A stretch of DNA of 64,000 nucleotides from Psammoneis japonica (lineage: Eukaryota), in contig QPGO01000019.1 in NCBI GenBank assembly GCA_008632985.1, positions 1 to 64,000 on the forward strand. The letters are read 5' to 3'. Below the pieces are notes generated by a model. That model was not told the origin of the DNA. It did no database searches and was given only the letters and a program-made list of their open reading frames with translations. Of this stretch, positions 6,855 to 35,000 are shown one piece after another (the stretch's first letter is position 1; every line of letters starts with the position of its first letter). Made by a program: the position numbers and the translations under genes.

Positions 6855-7078
6855 TTTGCCGTGCACAGTTTTGTGTGCTTTAGTTCCGCGCGTTCACGCA
6901 CGATGTAGTTTGCTTTCGAGCCACAAGGCTCACAAGAACAACAACAGTGGCCCGATTGTGCCGACTTGCACGTCTTTCGGCTCCTGTGACGGTCTCTGAG
7001 CGGAGACTCATCTGCCATTTAGACAGCAGTAAGGAGTTGTTGTTTGAATTCTTGCCATTTGCCTTCATTTTTCTGTCA
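6802..7078 (+). repeat. 3' LTR of copia copy 1 (277 bp)
   Basis: TGACAG...CTGTCA termini; follows the polypurine tract. Confidence 0.96.
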
Positions 7079-8277: not shown

Positions 8278-8634
8278 ATGACAGAGTCCAGGTAGAGTGG
8301 TTCCCTTTTGAGCAACGAGGATGATGATGACATTGAAAGCGAAAAGCTGTTGATGGATGAGGACTTTGTGTTTGACTTTGAAGACAACTTTGATGCCACG
8401 GATGCCACGGATTCGTCAAGGTGATTGGATGGATGCAATGAGAGTGACATTGCAGAGGCGGATTCAATGACAGAGTCCAGGCAGAGTGGTTCCCTTTTGA
8501 GCAACGAAGATGATGATGACATTGAAAGCGAAAAGCTGTTGACAGATGAGGACTTTGTACTTGACTTTGAAGACAACTTTGATGCCACGGATTCGTCAAG
8601 GCAATTGGATGGTTGCAATGAGAATGACATTGCT
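8278..8634 (+). repeat. Tandem duplication, period 189 bp, encoding an acidic peptide
   Basis: ATGACAGAGTCCAGG...GACATTGC at 8278 and 8467; period is a multiple of 3. Confidence 0.85.
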
Positions 8635-9033
8635 GAACTTGTCGTGAAGTTCAGAGATGCTGCCGACAAAAGCAAAGCTGCACATGAACTTTTCAGCCTT
8701 GAAGAAGAACCACTCCAAGACACAACATCAAGGAAACCAACAAAGAAAAGGAAACGAGCAAGAGGTCATCAAGACGCCAAATCGAAGTTGAAGAAGCGTC
8801 GTCGGCGCACTGGGAAACCTGCTGCATCAAAAGCTCCCCCCAAAAAGGTGAGTTTGTTTGCACTCAAATTATGATGATCTTGGTTTACAACTGGCGCTCA
8901 CTTTTGGCTTCTCCAGTTGTCGCAAATGACTCCATCTAGGTTGAAGACAAAGGCCAATCAACAACAAGAAATGCTCGTGAATGTCGAGTTGCCACCAAGT
9001 CTCAACCTGGAGGCATCTCCAAGAGAAGCGATC

Positions 9034-9309
9034 TGACAGAAATTGAAGGCAAATGGCAAGAATTCAAACAATGACTCCTTGCTGCTGTCTAAACAGCAGA
9101 TGAGTCTCCGCTCAGAGACCGCCACAGGAGCCGAAAGACGTGCAAGTCGGTACAATCGGGCTGCTGTTGTCATTCTTGTGAGCCTTGTGGCTCGAAAGCA
9201 AACTACATCGTCCTCGAACGCGCGGAACTGAAGCACACAAAACTGTGCGCGGCAAACTAAACAGCGCGCGACATTTCACGCGCACCCAAATCCTGCTCAA
9301 ATCCTGTCA
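9034..9309 (-). repeat. 3' LTR of copia copy 2 (276 bp)
   Basis: TGACAG/CTGTCA termini; adjacent CTCCCCAG is the reverse complement of the PPT. Confidence 0.96.
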
Positions 9310-14908: not shown

Positions 14909-15847
14909 GGCAGACAAAAGTGGTGTCAGGACAAGCAATTCTTGTTGGGAAGCGAAGGTGGACTTGAAACTTGGGTGAGAACAGACTTGACTTGAAACAG
15001 ACTTGACTTGAAATCTTGAACTACCTTAAAATCAGAAGTCGCCCGGCTGTGCTGTCCCATTCGTTGTCAAGTGCCAAACTTCCCATCCAGTCGGCAGAGT
15101 TGTGCCGGCACGTCCGAACCCGCAGCTGGTGGCACTTTGGGTTGCTTGCGAGCAGAGCAGCGGGTTGCAAACCCCTGCAGGTGAGCTGACCAGAGGTGGA
15201 CAAGACCCCCGAACCGTTCTCACTTTATGTCGGTTGGATTTCCCGATCAGGCTGGCCAGTTGACGCAGGCGTCAGGCGCTGTGGACGAACGAACAAACGC
15301 GGGAAAACACCCTCGCCCCAACGCAGGCTGCAATCACGGCTGCTTGCTCTCACAGTCATCCTCGTGGACCTGGTGGAACTGCAAAGCACCAGCAGTCCGG
15401 GGTAGATCAGGTGCAATGGACTCGGTGTGCTTGCAGAGTGGTGGCAAAACTGCAGTCCAAAAGAGTGGGTGCAAGTTCTTGGCCGTGAAGATGTGCACAT
15501 GTGCACATGTCTTCAGCGACGAAGATCCTTGAATGTGTGGGGGTTCTTGACCGTCAACCGATGAACGGGTGTGTCAAGGGATGACGATCAAGGACAGACT
15601 TGGATGTGACCGTTGATGCATGTCTTCAGCGATCAAAGGTGGCACAATCAATCCAGATGTCCAGCGGCAAGGAGACTTGACGGTGACGTTAAATTCCTGC
15701 CGATGCCTGGCATTGAACGCACGCAGACTTGCCGATGTATGTAGAGTGCACACGGAGGTCCACACAGAATTGAAACAGCGTCGTCAGCAAATCAACGACG
15801 ACGATGGCGGTTGCTCAATGGGTTGACAATGAGCAAGACTGTCAATC

Positions 15848-16123
15848 TGACAGAAATTGAAGGCAAATGGCAAGAATTCAAACAACAACTCCTTGCTGCT
15901 GTCTAAACAGCAGATGAGTCTCCGCTCAGAGACCGTCACAGGAGCCGAAAGACGTGTGAGTCGGTGCAATCGGGCCACTGTTGTCATTCTTGTGAGCCTT
16001 GTGGCTCGAAAGCAAACTGCGTCGTGCGCGAATGCGCGGAACTAAAGCACACAAAACTGTGCGCGGTGAACTGAACAGCGCGCGACATTTCGCGTGCACC
16101 CAAATCCTGTTCAAATCCTGTCA
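15848..16123 (-). repeat. 5' LTR of copia copy 2
   Basis: Matches 9034-9309; followed on the minus strand by the PBS variant GATTGACAGTCTTG. Confidence 0.96.
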
Positions 16124-17269
16124 CGATCACCAAAGTTTCGGAGCTGGTGGAGAAGGTTGATTCGTGCCAACAAGCAAAGGAGCTGGCAACTCAAATTGAT
16201 GCCTGCATCATCCTGTTTGCCCATGCAAGAGGGCACATGGTTCACCCTTTGAATCTTGGCAATGGGACATCAGACGACACAAAGGGAATCGCGCTGCTGC
16301 ACTGCGCACCCGACAATTGCAGTTCTTGTCTCTCAATGCTGGACAAAGCTGTTGGGAATGGCTCATCGTGCCTCAGCTTCATCTCCAACTCCAGTTGTTG
16401 CATCAATGCATGCAAGTGCATTTGGGCGGCAATGCATTGCAAGGAATGGATCGAAGATGCCAAGGAATTGGCCAGGTTCATTTGTGCAGTTGACTTGAAT
16501 CCAGTTCTGGTGGAGAAGAAGAGCAAAAACCGACAGCACGATGAGTTTTGCAGGACAGTTGGATGGTCTAAAAAAGAATGGCATTGGTTGGCCGCATTGA
16601 GAATGGAACTGCGGGCAAAGGCAATTTGCCTTCGAGACCGAAAGGGTGGTGCACCACTCATTGCTTGTGGAGCCAACCCACGCAGAGCTCTCCAGTGGAT
16701 GAGCAAGTGTGATGCTGTCAAGATGCCTCACTGTGATTTCGAGACAAACGATGATCATGGCGTACGTTCCGTGCTTCATCCACAAGCATGGTTTGGTGCA
16801 TCCATTTGTGCAGAACTCCACGTGCTTGAGAATGTGTCGCAGAGGGAAATCAACGACTGCAATGCAAACTGTTTTTGTGGGAAGTTTCTTGAGCATCAAC
16901 ACAAGATGAAGAAGGCTGCGCTGTTCTCAAAACGTTTGCAAGCTGTGGGTGCAACCAAAGAGGATGCATGAGAGTGTGAGTTGGAGGCGAAGCTCATCAA
17001 AAGAAGGCAATGTCGGAGCTCATGTAAAAATTCAAAAAAAGCGTTTTGACAAGAAAGAACTCAGCTGCTGGTCAAGAAGCTTGTCAACACATGAGAGAAA
17101 TTTGTTTCAAGACATTGCACAAAGAATGAATTCGAAATGATCACCTCGAGTCGGAGACGTTCCATGGAATGATGCTGCATCAACACGCGTGTCGAATTCT
17201 CAGCGCAGAGTTAGGGGCTGGAACGGGCTTGACTCTTTGTCAACACAGAACGGCAATGAGGCTGTTGTG

Positions 17270-19830
17270 TCATGGAAAGGGTTGGCTCCAAAGACTCGAT
17301 GACATCTGCGCATGCAAGGAAGAGCACGGTGACAGTGAGCCGCCTTGCACTTGGATGCTGCTGTGTCGATTTGTCATCTAAACTCCCTTTTGTTTGCTTG
17401 TTGTGACTCCAGCTGCAATCAGCCACATGAAAGATCCGTCTCTCTACCGATGGATCCAGAAACAATGCAACAAAAAGGAGAATCTAAGCAAAATGAAGCA
17501 TCGAGAACTGGAAAAGCTAAATGGTGATTTGGGCGACTGCTCGCGACAGTGTGACACACCCAAGTCTTTTGAAGAATGACTCGAGGACATTTGTGTGTGC
17601 AAGGAAGAGCATGGTGATGGTGAGCAGAGCCGCTTGCGTGTCTCAATGAATGGAATCTATTTAGAATCTAACTCTTCGTTTGTGTGCTTGTTGTGTGTCT
17701 CGCTCGAGTCATCAAAGCCAAAGACAGGTCTCTCTACGAATGGATCCAGTGTCAATGCAACAACAAGGAGAATCTAAGCGAAGTGAAGCGTCAAGAACTT
17801 GAAAAGCCAACTGGTGATTTGGACAACTGCTCGCCACATCATGACACACCCAAGTCTTTTGAAGAATGACTCGAGGACATTCGTGCACACAAGGAAGAGC
17901 ACGGTGATGGTGAGCAGAGCCGCTTGCGTGTCTTGATGAACAGAATCTATTTGGAATCTAACTTTTCTTTTGTGTGCTTGTTGTGTGTCTAGCTCGAGTC
18001 AGCCAGACAAAAGACAGGTCTCTCTGCGGATGGATCTGGAAACAATGCAACAACAAGGAGAATCTAAGTGAAGTGAAGCGTCAAGAACTGGAAAAGCCAA
18101 CTGGTGATTTGGACGACTGCTCGCGACAGCATGACACACCCAAGTCTTTTGAAGAACGACTTGAGGACATTCATGTGCACAAGGAAGAGCACGGTGATGG
18201 TGAGCAGAGCTGCTTGCGTGTCTCAATGAATGGAATCTATTTAGAATCTAACTCTTCTTTTGTGTGCTTGTTGTGTGTCTGGCTCGAGTCAGCCAGACAA
18301 AAGACAGGTCTCTCTGTGGACGGATCCGGAAACAATGCAACAACAAGGAGAATCTAAGCGAAGTGAAGCGTCGAGAACTGGAAAAGCCAGTTGGTGATTT
18401 GGACGACTGCTCGCGACAGTGCGACACACCCAAGTCTTTTGAAGAATGACTCGAGGACATTCGTGCACACAAGGAAGAGCACGGTGATGGTGAGCAGAGC
18501 CGCTTGTGTGTCTCAATGAACAGAATCCATTTAGAATCTAACTCTTCTTTTGTGTGCTTGTTGTGTGTCTAGCTCGAGTCAGCCAGACAAAAGACAGGTC
18601 TCTCTGTGAATGGATCCGGCATCAATGCAACAACAAGGAGAATCTAAGCAAAGTGAAGCATTGAGAACTGGAAAAGCCAGTTGGTGATTTGGACGACTGC
18701 TCGCGACAGTGTGACACACCCAAGTCTTTTGAAGAACAACTCGAGGACATTCGTGTGTGCAAGGAAGAGCACGGTGATGGTGAGTGGAGCCGCTTGCGTG
18801 TCTCAATGAACAGAATCTATTTAGAATCTAACTCTTCTTTTGTGTGCTTGTTGTGTGTCTGGCTTGAATCATCCAGACAAAAGACAGGTCTCTCTGTGAA
18901 TGGATCCGGCATCAATGCAACAACAAGGAGAATCCAAGCAAAGTGAGGTGTTGAGAACTGGAAAAGCCAGTTGGTGATTTGGATGACTGCTCGCGACAGT
19001 GTGACACACCCAAGTCTTTTGAAGAACGACTCGAGGACATTCGTGCATGCAAGGAAGAGCATGGTGATGGTGAGCAGAGCCACTTGCGTGTCTCGATGAA
19101 CAGAATCTATTTAGAATCTAACTCTTCTTTTGTGTGCTTGTTGTGTGTCTAGCTTGAGTCAGCCAGACAAAAGACAGGTCTCTCTGTGGATGGATCTGGT
19201 GTCAATTTCAAGACAAGGAGAATCTTGGTGAAGAAAAGCGTCAAAAACTGGAAGAACTCATTGGTGATTTGGGCGACTGCCAGTGCTTCACATGCAACTC
19301 TTTTGAAGAACGACTCAAAGACATCCACGCATGCAAGGAAGAGCATGGCGGCAGTGAGTCGAGGCTTTTTTGTCTCTTGTTTTACAGAATCTATTTAGAA
19401 TCTAACTTTTCTTTTGTTTGCTTGTTGTGTGTCTAGCTCGAGTCAGTGAAGCCAAAGACAGGTCTCTCTACGAATGGATTCGGCATCAAGTTCAAGACAA
19501 GGACAACCTCAGTGAAGAAAAGCATTGAAAACCAGAAGAGCTGGTTGGTGATTTGGGTCACTGGTTGCGACAGCGTGAGTCACCCAAGTCTTTTAAAGAA
19601 TGACTGCAGGACATTCGTGCATGCAAGGAAGAGCACGGTGGTGGTGAGCAGAGCCGCTCACGTGTCTTGTTGAATGGAATCTGTTTAGAATCCAACTCTT
19701 TTTTTGTTTGCTTGTTGTGTGTCTAGCCATGGTCAGCTGCACGAAAGATCCGTCTCTCTACAAATGGATCCGGCGTCAACTTCGAGACAAGAAAAATCTA
19801 AACAAAAAACAGCGTCGAGAACCACAGGGA
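17270..19830 (+). repeat. Nine tandem ~290-bp units (83-bp intron + 207-bp exon) encoding helicase-associated (HA, PF03457-like) domains; pseudogenised
   Basis: AAGGAAGAGC at ~17316, 17601, 17891, 18181, 18471, 18761, 19051, ~19335, ~19625. Example intron 17910-17992 is GTGAG...CTAAC...TAG. Inferred spliced unit: FEERLEDIRAxKEEHGD/ARVSQTKDRSLxxWIxxQxNNKENLSEVKRxELEK. Confidence 0.85.
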
Positions 19831-20104
19831 CTCATTGGCAACTCGGAAGCCCAGCCCAGCTTGCCTCAGCCTCCTCCTCCTCCGCTTCCAGTCTGCACTC
19901 AGCTCCCAGGTCATGTGATTGCAGCACACCCGCGCTTGCTTCCGCCTCCTTTGCACCTCTCAGCGATTGCCGGTTCTCCACCCATTGTTCTTCCTTCTGC
20001 TTCCGCCCCTTCACTCGTTCTTGCTCTTAATCCCGCCATGAAGACAGCTGTTCAGCCCCAACAGCCTGTGCAGGTTGTGCATTCCTCCAACCCAGGGTTT
20101 GCAT

Positions 20105-20250
20105 GCCCTCCGCCACCACCACAAGTGCACCCGCTGCTGCCGCAAGTGCATCCGCCGCCACCACAAGTGTGTCCGCCGCCGCCACAAGTGCACCCGCCGC
20201 CACCGCAAGTGTGTCCACCACTGCATGTGTGTCCGCCACTGCAAGTGCAC
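20105..20250 (+). repeat. 21-bp minisatellite encoding PPPPQV(H/C)
   Basis: CCGCCGCCACCACAAGTG-NNN units. Confidence 0.8.
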
Positions 20251-20971
20251 TGTCACCCCTCCTCTTGGGGGGAAAGGAGGGAAAAGCATTGTACAGCAGG
20301 AAGAGAGGGTTGTGAAAATGTCAGACTTTTGTGACTGGCGACAGCTCCGTAGAAGTGATGCCAGCATGTCGCGTAGAAATGAGAAACGAACATCCTGTTT
20401 TTTTGACAGACTGCGGCTGGCGTCGCTTTGCTCGCACGACTTCTTGCGGTGATCTGATTCTAGAGACAGGTGATCAGTGGGGATGGGAGGACTTTGCTGG
20501 CGCAGTTGGTCCCTTTCCATTCCCAAGCTGGAACAGCATGGCCAGAGGGAGGGAGAGGTGGGAGCGCTTTTAGACTGTCCACTCGGCTTGCTGCCAAAGC
20601 TCTTCAGAAGAATGAGCAACAGCAGCTTGCTTCCAAATGCCAACTTGAATGTGTTCAATGTGGCAGATGCGGGGGGTGATTTCCCGGTGCGTCATCAATG
20701 GGCAATGAGGTCATCTCCCCTTGTTGGTCTTTACGAGGCCAGCGACTGGCGTCGCTTTGCTCGCACGACTTCTTGTGGTGATCTGATTCTAGAGACAGGC
20801 AATTGGCAGGGATGGGAGGACTTTGCTGGCACAGTTGGTCCCTTTCCATTCCCAAGCTGGAATGGTGTGGCCGTTCCGGCGCCACCCACGCACACTGGTG
20901 CAGGTGGTGGCGGTGCAATTGGGTGGGTGGGTGGGCCCGGCTGGAAGGCTGAGGCGCGGCCTGTGATGGAA

Positions 20972-22127
20972 TCACTGGTCGGCGGCAGCAAGGGGCACGT
21001 CGGCATTGGGGTGTAGGACAAATTGGCCGCCCGCCAACATGCAGGTTGCGAAATTGCACATGACGGGTTCTGCTTGTAAGTGGAGGTAACGGAGCATCTC
21101 GTCGGAGTGCCATCGGCCTAAGAGGCGGATCACGTCAGTGTCAACATGGGCACATAGGAGGGCCATGGCACCAGCCGTGCGCAAACAGCGAGCGGAGACA
21201 TCGGCGGGTGTGAAACCCAGCGTAGCGGGGCCGATTGCCAGAATTGCAGCACGCAGGATGCTGGTGATGTCGGCGGGAGAGACACGGCACCAGGTGTTGT
21301 CATGCAAGCACACACCAAGGGGCATGTCTGGTGTGGCACCAAAGGTGCGGAGATGTTTCACGCGACGGATGAGGGCGCGTGTCGGACAGAGGTCAGGGTG
21401 TCCGGATGGGCCAAGACCTGTCACTTCACCATGCACGCCATTCTTCTGTGTGGCAAAAAGTGAGCGTGCCAAAGGTGGCGGTGTCGAGGTGTTCATCGAT
21501 GCAGGTAAACAAATCGAGGCAAGCACCTCCCGCGGAGAGGCGAACGTCCCCCAACCGAAATGGAGTGGTGTCGGAAGGGGTGGCGGTGCATTCGCCTGGC
21601 CGCAGGAGGAAGAAAAAGGCCAAAGCAGTCATGTCTGTGATGGCTTGGGTGCCCGGATGGTTGGTCAGGGAAGCGGCATGGGCAATCCACAAGAGGACAG
21701 CGACGGGGACCGGTTTGACCCGGTCTGGCGGAGGATCCTCTTTCTTGTAGAAACGGATTTGGCAGCCAACGCTGAAATCCATGTTGCCTTGGAGTGTGTG
21801 CCGCGGGTCCAGGGACCCCATTGCAGCAAACGTTTGGCCAATTGACCGTAAGGCACCCTCAGCGGTGCGTGCGCGGACGGGATTGCCACGTGGGGCGATG
21901 GCACCTGTACGGAATCGGTGCACAAAAACTTGGAAAAAGATGACTGGGTCGTTGACGTCTTGCAAGAGAGGGTCGAGGGCCAAGTCGTTACAGAAACTTC
22001 GCCAGAGGTCCCAGTGGGCATTGCTGGAGCTGGCGGAAGAAGCGGCAACGCCGTGGGCAATGGCGTGTTGCACAGCGCCGAGATCACCTAGGAACGCAGC
22101 GCGGGTGGAGGGGTCCAAAGGCGCCAA
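20972..22127 (-). pseudogene. Tyrosine recombinase of the Ngaro element (frameshifted)
   Basis: FFFLLRPGE, SARCLRTAGAMALL and LLGRWHSDEMLRYLH motifs in ORFs 21426-22127 and 20972-21526. Confidence 0.9.
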
Positions 22128-24500
22128 GAGGGAGTCTGTGGGCAGTGAGTGTTAAAATGTTGCAAGAAGGAACAGTCAGACAATTGTTGCAAGCAAGAGG
22201 CGTCATCTGCAGCGGTGTTTGGTGGTCCCGGCAAGCAGTCGTGGAGAGACAGGTGGCAGTGGAAACGTTGGTGGTGACCTTGGTGTCGAAGGAGGGGTGC
22301 TGCGACCTTCGCAGTCGTGGTGGAGCCCTTGTGTTGACGAAAGAGAGTGCCGGTGTTGTCCGCACGGTCAAGCACTGTGCGCTCTCGAACGTCGAAACAG
22401 TCCACCGCTGCACAGGATTGCACAACACTGCCGACCAACTCCAAGTCGGTGTTGGCAATGGGGCCGCGGGGATTCTTAAAAGTGGACAGGCGGTCGGTGA
22501 CTGCTTGAGGGAAATGCATGCACCAGACGATGGGTCCGGCGTCATGTTGTGGTCTCCGACGGCAAGCAGTGGAGTGACGCAGCGTGGTGCTGCGTGCGAC
22601 CACTGACAGCGCAGGGAGAAGGACGCCACCTGCACCATGACCGGCTGCATCATGGCAGCCCGTGACAGTGGGCGACAGGGGGACAAGTTCTTGGATGCGG
22701 GTGGGGCGGAGATCGAGCCCGCAGCACAACAACCGAAAATCGTCCAACATGTCATGAAAGTTGCGGGCAAGACGAACTCGCCCGTCGGGTTTGGTGTGGA
22801 GCAAGGCTTCTTGACGTGTTCCAGCTCTAGGTGGGACCTCGTACTGCTGAACTGTGACACAATTATTTTTTGTCATCCGTGGCATGTTTCGCACGTACAT
22901 TTCTACGTGTTCTGTTGTAAAAAATTGTTCCACACTGCCTGTTTTGCGAAGCCAAAGGCTTTCTGTCATCTGCACTTGTGTCAACAAAAATGCACTGGGC
23001 ACATTCTTTAATGTCTAAAGAACACACCCGGGCATGCTGCAAAGAATGCACTTCAAGTGTGGAGGAGGAGATGCGTTCACAAAATTGCCTCTTTTTCTGT
23101 TGGCGATCATTCATGTGTCCATTGCTTGATGATTTTACTGCGGAGCTCGCACGTAGAATTCTGCGGGCCCAATGTCACAAAAAGTCCCACCTGGGACTGG
23201 AACCCGTCTCTTGGAGTTCGGAGAACAGATTGCGAGACCCGGGAATGCCGGGCGTGAGGGATCGCAGTTCGCCAAGAAGCTTGTGCAGGTCGGTGAGCAC
23301 TGCCCGCTTGCGGTGGCAGGGAAACTCTTTGTGCAGCGTGGTGCGGAGGCGCTCGCAGCGTCGCGGCGTAAGGCAGATGGTCATGGACAAAGTGTCAATG
23401 ATCCACCCTAGGACCTCCTTCTGCATTGACCAAGTGGCGTCGCCTTTGCGGAGCTTTTTGACTGAGATTGGCTCCTTGCGACTCGCGTGATCTCGGTCGT
23501 CGAGTGGACGAAATGCATCGTCAATGGCGTGCATGATTGTGTGATGCACGTTGCGCAGCGATTGTTTGGAGCCTTGGGCGGCGCCGACAAAGTCATCAAC
23601 GTAGACACCGGCGCGGTGGTGCACGAGGTGTGGATCCGGCATGTCTGGCACTGGGACAGCGATGGACGGATTCACGTCAGCTGTCAAGGCAAGGTTCGAG
23701 TGGGTGTTCCGGTGCCCGACGGTTGTGCACGAGCTGGCGATTTGCAATGTCGGCGACTGTCTTGGTCGCCGTGCCAAATGCCAGAGGTGAGTTGGACCAT
23801 CCCATGGGTGACCGAGTTGGCATGGCCACCAGGGGAGGTTCCCCAGGAAGGCGGGAAAAAACCACACCCAGTGTGGGTGCTTGCTCGGGTGCCAGCTGCA
23901 TGCGGCAGAAACCATCCGCTGGGTCAATCTTCATTGGATGGATGCGGCCCTTGTTTGGATTGGCAAGGAGAACGTGCCGAAGGATGCGGTCCAGCGTGCG
24001 CCCGAACTGCATGGATTCCATTGGCACGTTTGGCTGAGCAGAGGGATCAACACCGTAGAACGTGTGATCCACAATCGGTCGTGGTCTGCGTGCGTGTTGT
24101 GGGACAACGCTGACAGGACTCAGCCGTAGATTGGGTTCATTCTTGACGTTGTTGCATGGAACAACCACCCAGAAACCCTTGTCAACACAGTCAGACATGT
24201 CTTCGCACAAAAACTCAATGTGTTTGTAGGCGGACTTGTGTGGTCCTCGAGCGATGCTACCTTGGAGCTCAGCGTTGGACCATGGCTCGTCTGCAACAGT
24301 GACCGGCACCCCTCGACATTTGCAACCGGTGAGCACTCGGTGTGCTGCATGCTGTCGCATTGTCACCAATGGTCCCCAGTCACCTCTGCCACTGCGCAGA
24401 CGTGACAAGCAACTGAGGCCTCTAAGGCGCAACAATTTTGCATCGCGTGTAATTTGCTTGCCTGATTTGTCAGTCAGTGCTGATGCAGCCACATCCTGTC
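22088..24500 (-). pseudogene. Reverse transcriptase / RNase H of the Ngaro element, interrupted by a TIR element
   Basis: LRLSPVSVVPQ..RRPRPIVD, KIDPADGF, GVYVDDFVG, KEVLGWIIDT, RNase H-like DAAGHGAGG. Confidence 0.88.
22813..23208. mobile_element. 396-bp non-autonomous TIR element (MITE), 4-bp TSD TCTT
   Basis: TIR GACG(T/G)GTTCCAG....AGGTGGGAC; TCTT at 22809-22812 and 23209-23212; excision restores LFSELQE-ALLHTK. Confidence 0.92.
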
Positions 24501-24629
24501 CACGTGTTGTGGGGCGGAAGTTCTGTTTTCTAGACTCCACTTGTGGGGGTTGTGGATGCATGGGCTTGTGTGCCCGTGCGGGAAGTGGCTCTTGGTTCCA
24601 TGTCCCCGAGCAGGAACCATTGCCGATGA

Positions 24630-27300
24630 CCTGTTCGGTCTTCCAATGTTGCGCACCCCACATGAGAAGGTCGACCTGCTGGTGCTCCGTGTGGCTGTGA
24701 TGATGATCGGCGCGTGATCCGCAGTTGTTGTTGCACTGTCCGATGAAATGGCATGGGAGACAACGTGGTGCCCCTTGGGAATCCGTGGGCAAGGCGACAT
24801 TGTCACGGGTGCAGCACTGCTTGACGGTGCTCGAACGTGCATTGGGACGCTCCCGTGAGACCGTGAAGCGTTCGTCGTGCTGTTCGTTGTGGATGATGGA
24901 ATTGTCGCCAGGTGCATTGATGCGGTTTTGTCCTGGCTGTGGCTGCCCAGAAGTCTGCGAACGCGGTGTCGTGGGCGGTTGAAGGACAGACGTCGGTGGG
25001 TCGAGATGCCAACAGTGGGCGCCTTGTGCGGCCTCAGCCACCACTGGGAGCGGTTGAAATGGGACAGGGCTTTGTGAGTGCATTTGCGCCTGGAACCAAT
25101 GGCACAGCTTTGCCTGCGCGCAACGTTGCAGGTCCGCTGGCAACATCGGGTGCGACACCACTTGCACCGCCAAATGACGCGTTCCAGCCCCAGGTGGGAG
25201 CTCTCAGCACTGACATGTGACAACAACAATTTTTGTCATCCGTCGTGTGTTTTGCATGTAGCTTTCTACGTGTGACATTAAAAAAAAATTGTCCAGACTC
25301 GCTGTTTTGCGAAGCCCCAGACGTTTTATGCAACAAATTTGTGGAAACAACAATGTGCCAGTTACATTCTTCAATGTCTGAAGAATGTAACTGGCTGAGT
25401 AAAAAATGATGTGCTTCAATCATGTGCGAGTTTGTGCGTTCGCAAAATTGCCTCATTTTCTGTTGGCGATCATTGACACTTTAATTGCCGTGTGATTTTG
25501 CTGCGGAGCTCGCACGTAGAAGTCTACGGGCCCAATGTCACACGGATTCCCACCTGCGTCTGGAACGCGTCAAATCGTTCGCGCAGACATCCATTGACTG
25601 GCGCATGTGAGTCAACCACTGTGCCAGTGGATGTGCCACGCCAAAGGCTGCTAAGAGAACGATGCACAAACCATTGAAGGACTGCTGAACTGCCTGGATC
25701 GCAGTGGCCACCATGGCGTCGTCCGGGGCCTCCAACACACGCACACCCACCAAGGACGGTGTGCCATTGCCTCCATGAATCTGTTGACACATGGAGCTGC
25801 GACAGGCGGTCTGCTCGGCTTGCTCCAGTGCAGTGATGCCAAACAAGAAGGGGGTGATCCCCTGAGTTAATTCGTCCTTGTCATGCCCAGCAAAGTCGAC
25901 TTGGGTGAGTTTTGTGACCAGGTTCACGGTCACTGGCACGCTGAAGCACACGTGGTGTGCTTGACGTTGCTCGTCGATTGCATTTTGGATGGCAGCAATT
26001 CGGCCGGTCTTGGGAGAGGCTGCCAGTTGCGCCCAGAGTGGTGGCAGGTTGGCTTCATGATGCACCTGGCACAAATGCATGAGTTTGGCGACGCCAAACT
26101 CTCCGCAGAACTCCGTCGGTGTCTTGCCGCGCGATGCCGCCTGTTCCGCGTCTAAACGTTGTTGGCGCTGTTCTGCTGTTAAGCTCTCGATGGCCGTGAC
26201 CACTGGTTCGAACTGGCGCAGTTGCGGCAGTTGGCCTGCGTGGTGCGGAAGATCACGCTGCACCATCGTGTCAAAGAAACAAATGAGCACTTCGTTGGGT
26301 GGCTGCACCATCATTGGCCATGCTTGCGCTGCTTCGGATGTGTGTTGGTCCCATGCTGTCGCGCAACACGCCACCTTCAAAAAGTCCAGAAGTGGCCTGC
26401 ATTCATTGACCACATTGGCAGCTGTGACAGCCCCCAGTGCCCGGGTGAATGCTTGCTTCAGCATCAACGGCATTGAAAGCAAGAGATTGGCACATGCGAA
26501 TGGCGCCATCATGGTGTTCTGTGTCCTGACCTCAACCGCATCTGGGTCGTTCGGCTGCACTTGTGGGTGCAATCCTTCCGGGGTCGTAACAATGTGAGCT
26601 TGCAGCGCTGCGTCAGTCGGCACCCACGTGCCGTGTTGGGCCAGCTGAAAGGCATCGTCAGCAATCGGTGCAAGTTGGCATTGTCCCATCGTCAGGTTGC
26701 CTGCGAGCGCAAAGAATTGTCCGTCCCACGGTTGTGCTGGTCCCTGCCACCGTGATCGGGTGCTGGGTTGTGCGATGAAACACCTGCACAACTCCCGCGT
26801 CGTTGCCTCCTTGCACCCGGCAGTGCTGTGCCAGTGCCACAGGCAAATCGTGCGAAGAAGCTGCTCCAACACGGGTCCTCAGCACATCAGGATCACAGCG
26901 GGGTTGCCCTTGCAGTGGGACCATGAAGTCCTGCATGATTTCCGCACAGTTGCCGGCGCACGGATCCTTTGTGGCGTGCAAGCAGCAATCCCGACAGGTC
27001 CGGATTACTGCCGGTGGTGCTGGAACTCCCTGCCCCACAGGACCTGCTGGCGGCACGGGTGGTGCTTGAGGTGCCCGCTGTTGGGGAGCCCCTCCCGGGG
27101 CTTGTCCTCCCTGCGCTGCGGCAGGTTGTGCCGCTGCTCCTGGCACTGCCGGCGCCATGGGATGCACTGGTGCTGGCGGCACGTTCTGGGCGTTGTTGGC
27201 TGCGGGAATCAGTTGTTGGGGTTGTTGAGCCGCCGCAGCGGCATCCGGCGGCGGATTGTTTCCGACATTTCCGTCTTTTGGTGCATGACGTGTGACTGTC
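24630..27300 (-). pseudogene. Gag-like ORF1 of the Ngaro element with C-terminal Cys/His finger (limits approximate)
   Basis: ORF pieces 26658-27425, 25538-26872 and the 5' part of 23677-25173 (RCLPCHFIGQCNNNCGSRADH); located upstream of RT. Confidence 0.65.
25176..25571. mobile_element. 396-bp non-autonomous TIR element (same family), 4-bp TSD AAAT
   Basis: TIR GACGCGTTCCAG...CAGGTGGGA; AAAT at 25172-25175 and 25572-25575; excision restores LRERF-GGASG. Confidence 0.92.
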
Positions 27301-27812
27301 CTGCGAGCTTTGTGGGTGCAGCAGCGGATGGCATCCTCCGCCGAACACAATGGCGCTTTTAGACTATCTATTCGGCTTGCTGCTAAAGCTCTTCGGAAGA
27401 ATGAGCAACAGCAGCTCGCTTCCAAACGCCAACTTGAACGCGTTCAATGTGGTAGATGCGGGGGGTGATTTCCCGGTGCGTCATCAACGGGTAATGAGGT
27501 CATCTCCCCTTGTCGGTCTTTACGAGGCCAGTTATAATAAATAAGAACGCGCGCACCAGAACCAAGAACCAAACCGGTCACCCACATGTTTTGATGACTT
27601 GGTCAACAGCTTTCTACCCGAAAGGATCGTCTGGAATGGAAAATAGGAGTAGCAAGTCTCCATTCTGTAGTGGAAAAGTAGTGCCTCCGCAGTACCGACT
27701 GGCATTATACGGCGAGTGGAGGGAATGGAAGCGAAAAGCGAAGTAGTATATATGGTACACTCGCGTGTAGTAGTTACATCACATTTCACATATAAGTGTT
27801 TAATTTGAAACC

Positions 27813-30800
27813 CTAAAACGGATCATTTTCTGTATCCTCGTATTTCTCCCAGTATCCAGTTGTGTGACTATGGGCTTGAGAGCAGGCGGTGACAAAAAGA
27901 GGCTCCAAGGCCTTTGGATGGTGTGCTTGGGTAAGACAGTTGGTTGGCTGATCCACAGGCCGAATGTCAAACCGGTGGAATCTGAAGCTTCCAAATCCTT
28001 CCCCTGGCCTCCATCTTTGTCTTGATACACTCGGATCACAATCTAGAAGTGTGACGGCCTTTTCTCGCGTAGGTCTGACCCCAACACACCTGTTCGTCCC
28101 CACCATTCTGATCATGTCTCCCGGCAAATTGTCTACCTCGGACGTGAAGTCAAATTCCCAAAGAGTCGTGTTTTCCAACCTGCAGTGGTCAACCCTCAGG
28201 CGACCCTCAATGAGATTCATGCACCACTTCTTTTCAATAGTCTTGTTTTGCCACCTGTAGGTGGAATTCCAGTAGAGCTTGATTGCATGGGGCGAAATAA
28301 CCTGCGCAGTTGGGGCTGGAGATGAGCTCGGTGCTGCAGTCATGTCGAAATTGATCCCGACTTCATTTCCTTGGATGTCAAACTCCCGAATAGAATATCC
28401 ATCGTTGGTTCCACTCTTGATTCCCTTCATGGCGACATATCGTCCAGTCGCGCCACTGTCGAGAGGGAGAAAGTCCGTTTTCGACGTGCTGTCTACGATA
28501 GATCTCCGGACAGTCCAGACATTGGCATCGTTGGAGGTTTCAATGTCGTAAGTCCTCCCTGCTGCCGGGCCGTCTTTCCAATACATTATGATGCGGTTGA
28601 TTTGGTACTCCTTACCCAAGTCGACATAAATCCACTCATCGTCCCCGGGACCACTTTGCCAGCGGGTGCTTCTTACCCCGTCGATGGCGTTAGTCGCCGG
28701 CAAACTCTCCGTCTCTGATGAAGCCGTCACTCCCACGCGCGGAAGCATAGCTCTTGGATCAAACGGAAGCGAACCTTCGGAAGTTGGAGCTGGAGTAGAG
28801 ATATCTCCGGTAGTTGGAGCTGGTGTTAGAGGAGTTCTGGTTGGGCTTGGAGTAGCGACCGGCGAGGGCGTCACACCAAGGAAATCTCCAAAAATCTCAA
28901 ACTCTCGAATGGAATACCGATTGGCATTTCCTCGACTGACTCCTCTCATGCGGACATACCTTGTGACAACTCCCACAAAGAAATTAACGACCTCAACCTT
29001 TCGATTACTCCGAACAACGGATTCCTGCTTGTTCCATGTGATGGCGTCGTCGGATGTTTCAATGTCGTAGCTCCTGCCAAGACCCTTCACCGGAGACCAT
29101 TGTAGGATCACTCGTGTTACGGAGTACGAATCGCCCATATCGACATAGATCCACTCATTGTCTTCAAGCTTACTTTGCCAGCGTGTGTCCACCATTCCAT
29201 CGATAACGTTACTTGCAGGCAATACCTTGGTATCAGAAGAAGCCTTGGCCGCTCTTCGAGGAAGAGTCGAATAGCTTGACGTAGCTTCCGCAGTTGAAAA
29301 AATAGTGGGAGACGGCGTGGCATTCGGATCGAAAACTGTAGGACTTGGCGTAGTGGACGGCTCCGCACTATTTGGGTCACCTTCGACGATAAACTCTCGT
29401 AGTGAGTACCCTCTGATGTTATCGAGTTTAACTCCTTGCATTCTGACGTATCGCGCCTTCGCCGTGAAGAGGATGAATATCGTCTGCTTGTTGCTATTCA
29501 TGATGGACTTTTGGGTTGTCCAATCTTTCAAATCCATGGAAGTATCGATGTTGTAAGTCCATCCTCGCTGTTCCGCTGCTGGCCAAAAGAGAGTTAATCG
29601 ATTCACAGCATATACTGCTCCCAAGTCTACGTAGATCCATTCGTCGTCGGTGGGGTCACTTTGCCAACGGGTGCTCTTCACACCATCGATCGCGTTTTTC
29701 TCTGGATATCTCGGCAACGCCGATGAAGCAGTAACTCCAACTCGTGGGAGAGGAGATCTCACTGTCGCAGTTGGAGTTGGCTCCTTAGTTGCCATTGAAG
29801 GACTTGGCGTCACCTTAGGATCAAACACTGTCGGACTTGGTGTAGTGGAGGATTCCTTGCTACTCAGGTCTCCTTGAACGATGAATTCTCGAAGGGAGTA
29901 CCCCCTCGCAGCATCTCGTTGAACACCTCGCATTCGAACATACCGTGCCCGTGCTGTGAAGAGGATGTATATTGTCTGCTTCCTACTCTTCGAGATGGAC
30001 TTTTGTGTCGTCCAGTTGCTCAAATCAGTGGAAGTGTCAATGTCATAAGTCCATCCTTGCCCTTCCGCCGCTGGCCAAAAGAGAACCAATCGAGATATCG
30101 TATAGACAGCTCCCAAGTCAACGTAGATCCACTCATCATCGGTAGGGTTACTTTGCCAACGTGTGCCCTTCACGTCATCGATTGCGTTTTTCTCGGGAAG
30201 TCTTGGTAACGCCGATGAAGCTGTTACACCTACGCGTGGGAGCGGCGCTCTTGGGTCAAATGGTGTTTGTGTTGGTGCTTGTGTTTTGCCTGAGCCGATG
30301 GCATTTCCTCTCACTACAAACTCCCTGAGAGAATATCCTCGTACAGATCCTCGCTCCAAACCTTGCATGCGAACATAGCGTGCTTTGGGGAGCCACTCAA
30401 GATCAATGGTGTCAGCTCTGTTAAGACTCTGAAACACGGTTTTCCCAAAACTCCAGTAATTCGCGTCCTCGGAGGTCTCGATCATGAAGGTCCTTCCCGG
30501 TGCTTCTGCCTCCGTCCAGAACAATTCAACCTGACTCACTTCGTAGACATCGCCAAAGTCGACGTAAATCCATTCGTTGTCATTGGCTTCGCTCTGCCAA
30601 CGAGTGTCCTTGCGTCCATCGATTGCGTTCTCGAGACGAAGACTTGGTGTTTCTATCGAAGATGAAGCAACTGCCTGAACAAGAGGCAAAGTAATTTGAA
30701 GTTCCCGTTGTGCTTGTCTCTCGTTCTTGTCTCCTTCAATCGTTTCCCACAATGGGCTCTTCGCAGGAGCCAAGTTCAAAGCATTGACACCTGCTACAGC

Positions 30801-30842
30801 CTCAATCGCAACTAGGATGGACAGTATTGATGCCACCCACAT
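27813..30842 (-). CDS. Secreted protein with five F5/8 type C (discoidin/CBM32-like) domains, Thr/Pro linkers and a C-terminal ricin-B-like domain
   Basis: Signal peptide MWVASILSILVAIEAVAG; five ASS...NAIDG...TRWQS...EWIYVDLG...RYVRM.G...YSLREF repeats; Cys/Trp-patterned C-terminus. Confidence 0.9.
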   Translation of the reverse strand: MWVASILSILVAIEAVAGVNALNLAPAKSPLWETIEGDKNERQAQRELQITLPLVQAVASSSIETPSLRLENAIDGRKDTRWQSEANDNEWIYVDFGDVYEVSQVELFWTEAEAPGRTFMIETSEDANYWSFGKTVFQSLNRADTIDLEWLPKARYVRMQGLERGSVRGYSLREFVVRGNAIGSGKTQAPTQTPFDPRAPLPRVGVTASSALPRLPEKNAIDDVKGTRWQSNPTDDEWIYVDLGAVYTISRLVLFWPAAEGQGWTYDIDTSTDLSNWTTQKSISKSRKQTIYILFTARARYVRMRGVQRDAARGYSLREFIVQGDLSSKESSTTPSPTVFDPKVTPSPSMATKEPTPTATVRSPLPRVGVTASSALPRYPEKNAIDGVKSTRWQSDPTDDEWIYVDLGAVYAVNRLTLFWPAAEQRGWTYNIDTSMDLKDWTTQKSIMNSNKQTIFILFTAKARYVRMQGVKLDNIRGYSLREFIVEGDPNSAEPSTTPSPTVFDPNATPSPTIFSTAEATSSYSTLPRRAAKASSDTKVLPASNVIDGMVDTRWQSKLEDNEWIYVDMGDSYSVTRVILQWSPVKGLGRSYDIETSDDAITWNKQESVVRSNRKVEVVNFFVGVVTRYVRMRGVSRGNANRYSIREFEIFGDFLGVTPSPVATPSPTRTPLTPAPTTGDISTPAPTSEGSLPFDPRAMLPRVGVTASSETESLPATNAIDGVRSTRWQSGPGDDEWIYVDLGKEYQINRIIMYWKDGPAAGRTYDIETSNDANVWTVRRSIVDSTSKTDFLPLDSGATGRYVAMKGIKSGTNDGYSIREFDIQGNEVGINFDMTAAPSSSPAPTAQVISPHAIKLYWNSTYRWQNKTIEKKWCMNLIEGRLRVDHCRLENTTLWEFDFTSEVDNLPGDMIRMVGTNRCVGVRPTREKAVTLLDCDPSVSRQRWRPGEGFGSFRFHRFDIRPVDQPTNCLTQAHHPKALEPLFVTACSQAHSHTTGYWEKYEDTENDPF

Positions 30843-31229
30843 GTTGCTCGGTTGGTGCCTCAAGGTTTTCGATGGACACTTTGTGGCAAGCAAAAGAAGA
30901 ATTGACGGCGGCAAAAAGTGACTGTGGTGCGAGGAATGAACGAAAAGTGGAGCGGATTTCATAAGACTGCGAATCTTTGTGCCCTCCCGTTGTTTCTACG
31001 TGACTCCCCGGTACTAAAACAAAGATTTATCACAATAGGAACAACGTCAATAAATGATGTCATTCGTTAAATAATTTTTCGTCCTCCCTAAAATGGGTTA
31101 AATGATTTCGACAGATTCGGGATTTAGCTATTGCCCTGAGGGTTACGATATTTTTTTTTCCTTGTCGAGGATTTGTCTTGCGCGGTTATCATGTTCGTCG
31201 TGCCACCTCAGGTTACGGCTCGAGCTCAA

Positions 31230-34200
31230 TTGCACTTTCACGAATGGACTCCACCAGTGGCTCGCTGTCAGGAAACGCTGAGAGCGCTTGCCACTCATGT
31301 TCCTCTTGTCTGTCATTGCTTCCACCATTGGAGCACATGATGCAGCCTGATGATGCAGAACAACGACTGGTGGGTGCCAGCTGGGGAAAAGAAGTCTCCT
31401 GTTGTGCTGCAGCCGTTGACCACCAGTGGCGAGAACCACACAAAGATTCGCCCACCTGGTTGGACCAAACTTGCACCAGCTTCTGTCAGAGGCAACTTTT
31501 TGACAATGAGGGCCAATGAGCTGTCATCAGAAAGTGACACAAAGAGAGCGTGTCAAAAACTTCAGGTGCCGCAGCACAGGTCCAGAAGGTCAGCCATCAA
31601 AAAGAGGGGCATTTGGCAAATTTTCCATCTGTCTGTGCCAGGTCTGACACAGGTCATGAAGCACTGCACCAAGCTTGTGGGAGTTCAGATGTCAAGCAAA
31701 GCACAAGCAAAACATTTGGGTCATCCAAGGCTGTGTGGCTGAAGAACAAACCAGTGCTGTGTCATCAAGAAGCCCTGCCATGCCCAGCTGCGCAAAGCAC
31801 AGCAGCTGTGATGGCACACCCAACCCACGGGCTGCACTTCTGGGGGTGCATAACCTGGCAGCTGGCCAATGAGAAAAAAATCACAAACCAATGGAGCAGG
31901 CTCTTCCTGGCCTCCATCGGGTCATGTCTTGTTGCTGTCTCTCACAGCATGGTTTTTTTGCATTTTTTGTTTTTGCATTGGGTTGCATCAGAGGATGCTT
32001 TGAGAAGCATTGTTTCAGCTAACTTGCAGCCATCAACATGTGAACAAGAAGAAAAAGCAACAGTCATTTTTGCACTGGCTGCCACTGGATGCACGACATG
32101 CTCTCCAATGATGGCTGACCACGCAGGCTCAGCGCGGGACATTGCACCCAAAACCAGGGTCAGCGCGTCTTCATTTTGCCACCGTGCCAATGAACTGCAT
32201 GCATTCATGAAAATAAATCTTCAACAATGGGTCAAATTTCATCCATTTGCACCGCGCTGATGTGGCCTCGTGCAGTGCTCAGCTTGGTGACTGTGAACAG
32301 GGTTGCAGCCAGTCAACAACAAATGCCAGTTGTCGGCATTTCCCAGAAAGTTGTGGCTTGTTTTTGTCTCTCACAAGAAGGATGGTTGTGGCAAAAATTG
32401 GTGGTTTCAGCTGCATGGCAACTGAACACAATCTGACAGGTGGCACTTGAAACTTCAAGTGGTGTGCATCTCTTGAACCACTGTGATGGCCCTGACAAGG
32501 GCTTGATGAACACACACCAGTGTTGGGGGGGGGGGGGTCTCCAAGGCACATCACCAAAATGACATGGCAAAGCATGGGAAATGCAAGAGCTGTGCAAACA
32601 TGTCCTTGACAACAAATGTTGTTTCTGCAGATCACTTTAAAACTGTGCGCAGCAGCCACAGTGTGGGGTGTGACATCAATGCAGAGCACATGCATGGGAG
32701 TTGGTTGAAACAACAAATTTCAAGAATTTGGTTTGTTGGGGGATGAGCCCAAGCTGCACTTTTTTGCAATCAAACAGGTCAGTTGAAGTGCCCCTGGCAC
32801 ACCACACGTGAAAGTGTTCCAAGCAAGTGAGAAATCTAGAGAAGTCAAGAGTCAAGCCACTCATCCAAACAATGGCGCATTGTTGAGTGGTTGTTTGACA
32901 AAACCTGCACATGGGTTTCAACAGCAAATGTGGCAGCTCCTTTCTCAAGAGATTGGAAAAAACATGCCCACAAGGCACGCGCTTTTTCAAACAAGCACGA
33001 GTGGCATTTTTGCCAGAGTGTCATCATTCAAGAGCACTCAGTCAAGCCAGTGAAATGCCAAAGACAGAAATGAGCTCATCGACAGGGGGGGTGCCATCAG
33101 CGCAAAAAGGAGTTGTGACTCATCTTCTGCCAAATCTGTGCACTTTTGGTGAGAGAGCAGTTGTTCACTGTGCTGAAGTTGGCTTGCACAAAGCTCTGAC
33201 TCACAACAAGATGAGCATTGGGAACAAGCAGAACAAGTTGTTTGTGCCACAAACAATGGGAGGAGGTCAAATGGATTTTGCAGCTCTGCACAAAAGTGAC
33301 AAGAATGACAAGTGAGCTGAGTGAGAGTGCAGGAGAGTCAGGAACTGGGCAGACCACAATGTCAGAATCTGGTTTCACATTGCAGCAACAACAAGTGTCA
33401 AAAGATTCAAAGTGCACAAGAAGAGTTTGAGGGGTGGGTGGAGGTGGCTTTGCAACTGGCATTGATGTCAGGTGTGCAACAATGCATGTCTCCAATGTGC
33501 ACAGGCAAGTGCTGATCACATGTTGTGCAGCAACAACATGAGAGCAAGCCACTTCTTCTGCCATCCTCCCAGCATGGCAAGTTGAGCAACTGTCAGGGTC
33601 AAAGTGTTGCTTGCAAGCAACAGCAGACACAAAGACTGATGGAAGGTGGCAGCCAACACTTGCCATTGCCACAGTCTTCTGACATTGAGAAATGACCCAA
33701 TTCAAGCAAAGACAAGGCTGGCAAACATGTTGAAATCTTGTTTTGAAATCTTTTTTCTGTCAAATCCTGCAGTGCACCCATCATCTGCATGAAACTTGCC
33801 AACAGCTGCAGAGTGCCCCCAATCATTGCACCAGAATGTTCAGAAACAGAGGGGAGAGAAAACATCCCCTTGGCAGCCATTTGCCCAAACCACACGAAGA
33901 ATGCACAGAACATCAGATCCAAACCCATGCTCATCTGGTGCATCCAAAAAATGTTCTTGGTCAATGGAGTCACATGCTCTTGCCATGTCAAGAAAGATCT
34001 GGTGACATTGAGCGTGCACATGTCTCACATTCACAGCAGAAACAGAGACCATGTGAGCATCAGGATGAAGCTTGACCACCAATCATCAAGCAGCCCTTCT
34101 GCAAACAGTGAACCCCCACACAACTTGGCAGTTCAAGAAGAGCAGCACCACAAAACTTGCCCAGCTGTTCTTTAGGATGAAGAGCAAAAGAGTGGAGTTG

Positions 34201-35000
34201 GAGCAAGAGATGACATGGGAAGTGGAAAACACAAGAACAACTGACCAAAATGGCCACAATGAAAGAGCCCCCCACTCCCAATGAAGAGGAGTGGGCTCAA
34301 CTCAGACACAACAGAAAAGGACCTGAGACATGCCCTTTAAAAGAGAAAGTGCAAAGAATCTCACATCTTGCAGCACCAGTCAGAACCATTGTCTAGAGTG
34401 GGGCAAGTGATGACAAGGACAGTGAGAGATGGGCCAATGACGGGGCTGTTGGAGAGCAGAAAATTTTGTGCTTCTTGTTGCTCAGCCATTGCAAGTTCTC
34501 AAACAAAGGCTTTGTGGTGCAAAGGAGATCAACTTGAGTGCCACTGCCATTGCATGGTGTGATGTGCCTCATGAGTTTCACCCCCATTGCAGATGTGCTG
34601 CTTCTGGCAGCTGAGGCAATGACAGCCTCCAGCTGCAGCCAAGTGGGGGGCATTCCAAGGAAGAGAAAGAAGAGTGTTGCACTTGTTTGGCAGCTGTTTT
34701 GTCATTGAGACAACAACAAAGCTGGCAGTGATTCGCAAAAGAAGCTTTTCCATCGATCAAATGTGTCATGCATCTGATGCATCTGAGCAACTTTTTGCTC
34801 TGCCAGTTTGTGCTGCTGCTGTGACAAGAAAGGATGTGTGAAAGAAAAAACAAGCAAAAGAAGACAGAGCTGGTGCAAGTTGTTTCCACAAATGCTCATC
34901 GTCTCTCACAACATCTTTAGAGACCTCTCCCACGAGCTGGCCAATTGCGGTGGCCAACTGAAAGTCACGAAGGCGTCTGAACCGTTTCTCAAAACTCAAA
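31230..35000. other. Heavily decayed island (probable old TE), almost free of TpA and poor in CpG
   Basis: About 9 TA dinucleotides in 31261-34980 by hand count; no recognisable protein. Confidence 0.75.

Follow-up and report, generated by a model that had tools for sequence, protein, structure and literature searches.

The two A repeats of a degenerate Ngaro-type retrotransposon, located in a 64,000-nucleotide stretch of contig QPGO01000019.1 (the whole of which is hereafter the window), differ in a manner that is probably the local readout of two context-specific mutation processes acting on integrated transposon DNA within sharply bounded domains. The faster process would convert TpA to TpG or CpA on both strands equally, removing about 50-90% of the TA sites where other sites have diverged by ~1.5%, and the slower one, which acts on CpG with the same two products, would proceed about as fast as methyl-cytosine decay typically does. 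The internal repeat A2, the repeats B1 and B2 and the interior of the element would lie inside such a domain and have been struck by both processes. The terminal repeat A1, a short distance downstream of a gene of the same orientation, would lie outside it and keep the ancestral TA and CG sites. As a description of the mutations as such, we consider this account very likely to be correct.

In an ungapped alignment A1 and A2 (coordinates of all features in Table 1) differ at 13 of 179 positions, with 93% identity, and all 13 differences are transitions. Five are TA in A1 and TG or CA in A2 (27366, 27369, 27384, 27453 and 27492), seven are CG in A1 and TG or CA in A2 (27395, 27417, 27427, 27439, 27441, 27488 and 27514), and the only one outside these contexts is T versus C at 27371. 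TA or CG covers 40 of the 179 bases of A1, and at least 12 of 13 transitions would fall there by chance with P = 1.6e-7; moreover, all 12 context differences carry the TA or CG state in A1 (sign test, p = 0.0005). Relative to A1, A2 has lost 71% of its TA and 54% of its CG sites, and CG is retained at 13/13 sites in A1 and at 6/13 in A2 (p = 0.005). An earlier sequence-only reading of this DNA had counted by hand 13 differences in 179 sites, divided them into five TA, seven CG and one other, and concluded that both losses spare the outer copy, all of which the computed alignment reproduces. Three of the 13 differences, including the one outside TA and CG, fall within 6 bp (27366-27371), which hints at clustered events.

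The B1 and B2 repeats differ at 13 bases, corresponding to five reciprocal dinucleotide sites (TG in one copy and CA in the other), two CG sites and one other transition. The five reciprocal sites had been pointed out before, and the strings then quoted for them were found in the sequence. In both CG-type differences the CG is in B2 and TG or CA in B1, and five CG are common to both copies. Since two single-copy CG losses cannot yield ~10 double losses, the reciprocal sites are better explained as former TA than as former CpG.

A1 lies at the right-hand edge of a domain that covers the whole transposon island. Between 1001 and 27000 the observed/expected ratio (O/E) per kilobase is 0.04-0.33 for TpA, 1.21-1.74 for TG+CA and 0.59-1.00 for CpG, as opposed to 0.39-0.86, 0.95-1.35 and about 1 in gene regions. 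Three other blocks, at 31.2-34.9, 49.4-51.0 and 62.0-64.0 kb, together show O/E of 0.00-0.25 for TpA, 1.57-1.93 for TG+CA and 0.05-0.45 for CpG, and in one of them the kilobase 33001-34000 has no TA at all (TpA O/E 0.00) and a CpG O/E of 0.05. Altogether 69 of the 128 500-bp bins are TA-depleted, and a 250-bp profile places them in the transposon blocks. TpA and TG+CA are inversely correlated over the bins (Spearman -0.85), and median G+C is 0.53 in depleted bins versus 0.48 elsewhere. Tyrosine makes up 0-1.2% of the residues in transposon open reading frames (ORFs) and 2.2-3.1% in gene ORFs, and ATA codons are absent from 7/7 transposon ORFs. The sharp border previously proposed at A1 is real: the segment 26300-27352 has two TA where 39.3 are expected from base composition, and the 281 bp beyond A1 have 23 where 21.9 are expected. 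Because the segment 27007-27352 is G+C-rich (0 TA seen, 8.8 expected), this right border can be placed only to within about 100-350 bp of the inner edge of A1.

A pair of Copia elements from the same island gives access to the direction of change. Copia1 and Copia2 are 93.3% identical over 7.09 kb (window positions 2-7078 versus 16103-9034). They share 28 TA sites, 84 being found in Copia1 only and 8 in Copia2 only; for CG sites these counts are 420, 86 and 45. Other substitutions number 108 in 7056 columns, a pairwise background divergence of ~1.5%. At 53 further sites TG in one copy faces CA in the other, an arrangement that requires a palindromic dinucleotide in the ancestor, with one strand hit in Copia1 and the opposite strand in Copia2. 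If CpG decayed at the observed 9.7% and 17%, 4.6 such sites would be expected (P(>=53) = 4e-37), and TA was therefore lost separately in each Copia copy, after their divergence. The excess translates into about 97 TA sites that the two copies lost independently of each other, where 87 are expected under independence. The reconstructed ancestor would have had about 217 TA sites and a TpA O/E of 0.63. Of these TA sites Copia1 lost 48% and Copia2 83%, and of their CG sites the two lost 10% and 17%.

A two-copy comparison alone gives no direction, and the differences could be read in the opposite sense, with a TG/CA-rich ancestral state and a process resembling fungal repeat-induced point mutation (RIP), described as acting on both strands at CpA, that created TpA from CpA/TpG in A1 and the Copia1 leader. 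Such a process cannot make reciprocal TG<->CA sites like the 53 of the Copia pair. Moreover, the protected segments are gene-like, with TpA O/E of 0.70-0.97 and no excess, and conserved tyrosine codons read cysteine or histidine: the three columns with consensus Tyr among 150 homologs of the Ngaro reverse transcriptase are Cys, His and Cys in the window copy, in the recombinase the motif PGEYT has become PGECT, and a second conserved Tyr is likewise Cys. Finally, 80 environmental loci with recombinase relatives have TpA O/E of 0.38-0.87, none below 0.38, compared with 0.13 for the element in the window and 0.70 for A1. The opposite direction is thus very improbable; sequence comparisons on three fronts (reciprocal excess, tyrosine replacement and the TA content of relatives) support TA as the ancestral and TG/CA as the derived state, in line with the earlier view that A1 is the unmutated copy. 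One of the 80 loci (L009, a metagenome locus of 1852 bp) is the sole one with a mild double signature (TpA 0.38, CpG 0.48, TG+CA 1.46). The A and B repeats themselves have no match among these 80 metagenome loci.

The TA process acts on DNA and is strand-symmetric. In the sense orientation TA was changed to TG in 105 and to CA in 93 cases (p = 0.43), so that editing of RNA or complementary DNA (cDNA) is unlikely as the main source. If an ADAR- or APOBEC-like activity had instead edited TA out of the RNA or cDNA of retrotransposing elements, and the edited state had then been inherited, this would agree with interiors being more depleted than the Copia1 long terminal repeats (LTRs), and some inheritance along lineages may have occurred. 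However, LTR pairs are, by the standard model, identical at insertion, and repeat pairs inside one element (the LTRs of Copia2, those of Copia1, and A1/A2) differ by TA loss. Besides their strand symmetry, the losses were independent in two Copias whose reconstructed ancestor had normal TA, and the non-coding array and MITE (miniature inverted-repeat transposable element) DNA of the domain are depleted as well. Editing before integration therefore has only a slim chance of accounting for the data. A purely selective explanation, by avoidance of UpA and CpG in element RNA and without any bias in mutation, would have a parallel in RNA viruses, where both dinucleotides are jointly avoided. It can be given next to no credence, considering that the elements are degenerate with broken frames, that non-coding repeats are affected, that 1 kb at 33001-34000 contains 0 TA and that copies differ inside a single insertion.

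The sequence context of the TA losses was evaluated by the choice of strand within each site in 84 polarised events. On the strand with the mutated A, C at +1 is favoured (29 vs 11, p = 0.006), G at +1 is disfavoured (6 vs 25, p = 0.0009) and CG at +1+2 is favoured (14 vs 2, p = 0.004). Among the 128 TA that survive in depleted DNA outside the Copias, TAT accounts for 5%, versus 28% in gene regions, and TAG for 37%, versus 21%. By simple arithmetic against the 1.5% pairwise background, TA loss runs at roughly 40-115 times and CG loss at roughly 7-12 times the background. Per site, TA loss is about 5-10 times faster than CpG decay.

The chemistry would be adenine deamination in DNA by an enzyme of the TadA/ADAT family, as has been proposed for the chlorarachniophyte Bigelowiella natans. 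U33-A34 is known as the universal tRNA context. tRNA adenosine deaminases have U before the target A just as the process described here has T. Bacterial TadA is reported to edit at UACG (PMC10027721), which resembles the T-A-C and T-A-C-G contexts favoured in the window. On the other hand, TadA and ADAT act on RNA loops, whereas the process seen here must attack both strands of chromosomal DNA, and TAT is also efficiently lost. The TAC(G) preference fits the adenine-deaminase idea put forward for B. natans, and we would give an even chance to the candidate enzyme being of this family.

CpG loss and TA loss overlap in territory. Nineteen of 20 CpG-depleted 500-bp bins are also TA-depleted, and TpA and CpG O/E are correlated over all bins (Spearman 0.64) and inside the TA-depleted ones (0.50). 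In the Copia pair, 131 single-copy CG losses among about 560 sites, compared with 108 other substitutions, reveal an excess of CG to TG/CA changes. The leader of Copia1 has lost two CG and that of Copia2 nine; pooling A and the Copia leader, the protected segments have two CG losses and the mutated ones 16 (p = 0.0013). The sequence-only reading had stated that TA and CG are lost at similar intensity and suggested that TA mutation is coupled to the CpG-methylated domain. The former statement is valid for A2 and not for the Copias, in which the loss of TA far exceeds that of CG in the percentages given above; moreover, 33 of the 69 TA-depleted bins keep a CpG O/E of at least 0.8, and marked CpG loss is therefore no precondition for the loss of TA. 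Of the latter, the co-localisation is borne out: the two losses have common borders, spare the same segments and coincide in those 19 bins. Methylation of these domains is suggested by the rate of CG loss and by a review passage according to which transposons are highly methylated in the diatom Phaeodactylum (PMC3145265). As in the methyl-CpG decay of methylated transposons, CG changes to TG/CA at roughly ten times the background and in transposon DNA only, but here this presumed decay is the minor process and shows a strand-choice bias.

Protection of an outer segment is seen once more, in a stretch of about 800 bp of Copia1 spared both losses. From 252 to about 1030, 39 TA were lost in Copia2 and none the reverse, with TpA O/E of 0.97 versus 0.13, and the change from protected to mutated sequence occurs at about 1030-1100. 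Both protected pieces are 5' parts of elements situated at the outer edges of the island, A1 closely following a same-strand gene that encodes five F5/8 type C domains; in Copia2, which lies deep in the island, the corresponding parts are mutated. Position or chromatin is thereby favoured as the determinant: of two Copia leaders 93% identical to each other just one was mutated, which agrees poorly with a trigger by homology pairing. The process would be targeted to silenced, probably CpG-methylated chromatin and would end where the activity of a neighbouring gene begins. A chromatin border as the cause of the protection has, in our judgement, about equal chances of being right or wrong.

The protected segments might instead be artefacts or accidents, brought about by mis-assembly or by gene conversion from a younger, unmutated copy. 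Both families are multi-copy, with 5432 contig pieces aligning at a likeness of at least 80%; the one sequencing run listed as containing this stretch (beside two runs of the same sample and none of RNA) covers just 55% of the words sampled from it, A2 is joined to A1 in one contig, and the protection of Copia1 is an island and not a gradient. Nevertheless, the same picture is found at both outer ends of the transposon island, the protected segments run unbroken into normal flanking DNA, CG is co-protected, and in background changes (14 in 825 bp) the leader of Copia1 has diverged from Copia2 to the same extent as the whole element (1.5%). We consider an artefact or accident unlikely, though not negligibly so.

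Several observations weigh against the two-process account. The outermost LTR of Copia1 has lost roughly 30-50% of its TA, and the leader just inside about 10% or less, so that protection is not a simple gradient from the island edge. An outgroup base was obtained for only one of the 13 A1/A2 sites among the 40 listed of 904 variant places in contig pieces aligned at the likeness stated above; at this A2 site, 20652, five of five other contigs read C, the A1-type base, which in itself counts in favour of the account. CpG loss is biased to the sense strand (TG 81 vs CA 50, p = 0.0085) and, in the Copia pair, its strand choice favours ACG (40 vs 7) and disfavours CCG (8 vs 33); neither the context nor the sense bias is obviously predicted by plain methyl-cytosine decay. 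The array of 290-bp units keeps several TA, which means that TA loss is not uniform in time or context: TA of the CTA/TAG type (for instance in TCTATTTAGAATCTAAC) is retained in nearly all units, either because the array was amplified after TA loss or because these contexts are resistant. Its variable columns comprise eight of CpG type with three states (CG/TG/CA), three TA/TG and four ambiguous ones; the array was discarded as a multi-copy test of the direction of TA change, as its variation is mainly of CpG type and bears on CpG decay only.

The strong CpG context and the borders common to both losses could also indicate a single dual-activity deaminase that attacks the A of TpA and the C of (A)CpG, cytosine methylation playing no part, and the B. 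natans preprint (bioRxiv 10.64898/2026.01.13.699255) cites ADAT2 enzymes with deaminase activity on A as well as C of DNA. Yet CG loss at about 7-12 times the background is ordinary for methylated CpG, and high methylation of transposons is reported for Phaeodactylum in the review mentioned above. The two losses are also separable, as seen in the TA-depleted bins that keep their CpG and in the array that varies mainly at CpG. The possibility that the mutated CpGs lie in TACG was rejected, given that T precedes only 3/47 mutated AC*G sites. A dual-activity enzyme is accordingly rather improbable, and two separate processes remain the account that we favour.

The TA process belongs to a kind recently described in another lineage. 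For B. natans, two viral regions integrated in the genome are reported to be hypermutated about 1000-fold in mutation-accumulation lines, the changes being confined to TpA, which becomes TpG or CpA (Mettrop et al., bioRxiv 10.64898/2026.01.13.699255). According to the same preprint, that genome has 124 TpA-poor, CpA+TpG-rich clusters, enriched in reverse-transcriptase and DDE domains, and an ADAT2-like enzyme is the candidate for the proposed adenine deaminase. The two cases are alike in the exclusive change of TpA to TpG/CpA on both strands, restricted to foreign DNA, and in TpA-poor, CpA+TpG-rich clusters with reverse-transcriptase domains. They differ in the host, here probably a diatom-like stramenopile and there a rhizarian; in the targets, which are Copia, Ngaro, MITE and satellite DNA here and integrated viral DNA there; and in depth, the depletion being far deeper here (O/E 0.0-0.3) than in the viral region (0.45). 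The DNA of the window does not come from B. natans, and its host is placed by a single protein, a UCH protein without any match above 39% identity over most of its length. The four named matches of this protein at E <=1e-30, with about 35-39% identity, are all from diatoms (Fistulifera, Minutocellus, Mediolabrus and Odontella). A live mutation rate was measured in B. natans, whereas here the process is read from the scars that it left in the sequence. The window further shows CpG decay inside the same borders, a preference for C or CG at +1 and exempt element ends, and the words 'CpG', 'border' and 'boundar' are absent from the main text of the preprint.

Fungal RIP is likewise a dinucleotide-specific transition hypermutation that disables repeats and transposons and leaves a sharp-edged compositional scar. 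However, RIP makes TpA from CpA and lowers G+C, whereas here TpA is destroyed and G+C is raised (0.53 vs 0.48), and RIP was rejected as the process on these two grounds. In the literature found, TpA loss in transposons is reported only by the B. natans preprint, beside papers on fungal RIP, and none of the reports concerns diatoms. New here are the host lineage and several points that go beyond the main text of the preprint: losses that took place independently in single retrotransposon copies of one genome, a quantitative ranking of TA loss against CpG decay, borders common to both, element ends that are spared, and a TAC/TACG preference pointing to a TadA/ADAT-type enzyme. Should a diatom-like genome carry this same scar, the process would be ancient or else have originated at least twice. 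We can tentatively imagine, with more doubt than conviction, a DNA adenine-deaminase defence with a TadA-like T-A-C(G) preference, aimed at silenced, CpG-methylated transposon chromatin in stramenopile algae and Rhizaria. It would be old and widespread, a counterpart of RIP that works in the opposite direction and raises G+C, and the activity of neighbouring genes would halt it over a distance of tens to hundreds of bases, leaving element ends such as A1 as unmutated 'fossils'.

The losses have practical consequences for annotation. Dead elements display long false ORFs in all six frames as TAA and TAG stops vanish, so that gene callers would over-predict, and insertion ages estimated from divergence would come out far too high if TA and CG sites were left unmasked. 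In the six frames of 1-27352, TAA and TAG have mostly been mutated away, leaving stop-to-stop ORFs of 100-1100 amino acids on both strands of dead transposons, and the segment 20000-28500 contains 40 ORFs of at least 100 amino acids.

The element that carries A1 and A2 is, judging from its structure and gene content, a degenerate Ngaro-type tyrosine-recombinase retrotransposon. On the plus strand the order is B (20413-20543), A (20564-20742), B (20742-20872) and, far to the right, A (27353-27531). On the minus strand this becomes A1, internal region and B1-A2-B2, with A abutting B directly at 20742. The ends of the element are the outer ends of A1 and B2, which, if joined, would recreate the internal A2|B1 junction. 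By blastx, homology to reverse transcriptase and to the RNase H that follows it in pol extends over window positions 24630-21730 in broken frames. The reverse transcriptase is encoded by a 508-amino-acid ORF with 1899 homologs at E <=0.001 and a visible YVDD motif; RVT_1 was matched in seven of 10 long homologs scanned, every time below the Pfam cut-off. The ORF of the putative tyrosine recombinase retains the GRW..Y box. A structural model of its homolog P0358 (59% identical; predicted local distance difference test, pLDDT, 81) resembles Cre recombinase (Foldseek E 6e-7, probability 1.0, template-modelling score 0.52-0.64), and its next fold matches are Xer, Tn1549 and lambda integrases. The recombinase family profile gave no match to PDB sequences, and Pfam detected nothing in 10 ORFs of the Ngaro region at E <=0.01, nor in five of those at E <=10.

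The split direct repeats A1-internal-B1-A2-B2, the reverse transcriptase and a separate ORF for a tyrosine recombinase are all features of the Ngaro group in the DIRS order, and repeats of the Ngaro class have been annotated in a diatom. Unlike an active member of the group, the window copy is dead through frameshifts, two MITE insertions and heavy point mutation. Its interior together with B1-A2-B2, the two MITEs being excluded, has O/E of 0.13 for TpA, 0.82 for CpG and 1.55 for TG+CA. The MITEs have a TpA O/E of ~0.35, above the 0.13 of their host, as expected if they were inserted later. Contig depth summed over them amounts to 70,000-114,000, while the Ngaro sequence around them has about 500-1300, and other Ngaro copies are free of them, as shown by contig joints that skip 400 bp. 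A tRNA-derived origin of the MITEs was rejected, no tRNA genes having been found in the 64-kb window. A different contig joint, from 20583 to 27377, connects the left part of A2 to the right part of A1 with 6793 bp skipped and three extra letters between them; it marks a form of the element, recombined or solo-A, that is present at another place in the sample.

Table 1. Positions of the repeats, elements, domains and neighbouring gene discussed in the text, numbered from the first nucleotide of the window.
Feature	Position	Strand	Remarks
Copia1	2..7078	+	LTRs 2-251 (cut by window start) and 6799-7078; RVT_2 ORF 2881-6243
TpA-depleted, TG/CA-enriched domain (whole transposon island)	1080..27352		TpA O/E 0.04-0.33 per kb, CpG O/E 0.59-1.00
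Copia2, same family as Copia1	9034..16123	-	5-bp target-site duplication CGATC; hypermutated over full length
Tandem array inside the domain	17366..19853		About nine 290-bp units; unit variation mostly of CpG-decay type
B2, 3' terminal repeat	20413..20543	-
A2, internal mutated copy of A	20564..20742	-	2 TA, 6 CG; TpA O/E 0.20, CpG O/E 0.50
B1 repeat	20742..20872	-
Internal region of Ngaro-type element	20873..27352	-	Homology to reverse transcriptase, RNase H and tyrosine recombinase
Tyrosine-recombinase ORF	20972-21628	-	785 homologs
MITE-like insertion, ~400 bp	22812..23208		~20-bp terminal inverted repeats; very high-copy; splits the pol frame exactly
MITE-like element, second copy	25175..25571		73% identical to the first
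A1, 5' terminal repeat, unmutated copy	27353..27531	-	7 TA, 13 CG; TpA O/E 0.70, CpG O/E 1.06
Neighbouring gene	27813..30995	-	Five F5/8 type C domains; stop codon 282 bp from outer end of A1
Block II	31215..34917		Both dinucleotides almost gone (dinucleotide O/E); 6 ORFs tested
Block III	49430..50990		TpA and CpG depleted (dinucleotide O/E)
Block IV	62045..64000		TpA and CpG depleted (dinucleotide O/E); extends past window end

Pfam found no domain in the six ORFs tested in Block II, and none in 15 ORFs of blocks II-IV and the spacers. Three minus-strand genes of the window encode repeated F5/8 type C (discoidin) domains (27813-30995, 35770-38879 and 40066-41358), and their best database matches are bacterial proteins, mostly discoidin for the first of these genes, with at most 42% identity. 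The gene at 35770-38879 is split into the overlapping ORFs 35770-36768 and 36747-38879. Beside the transposon blocks there is also, on the minus strand at 53276-57685, an ORF of 1469 amino acids that combines a Schlafen AlbA_2 domain, a TANC1/NPHP3-like NTPase, WWE and ankyrin repeats, an architecture like that of an immune sensor.

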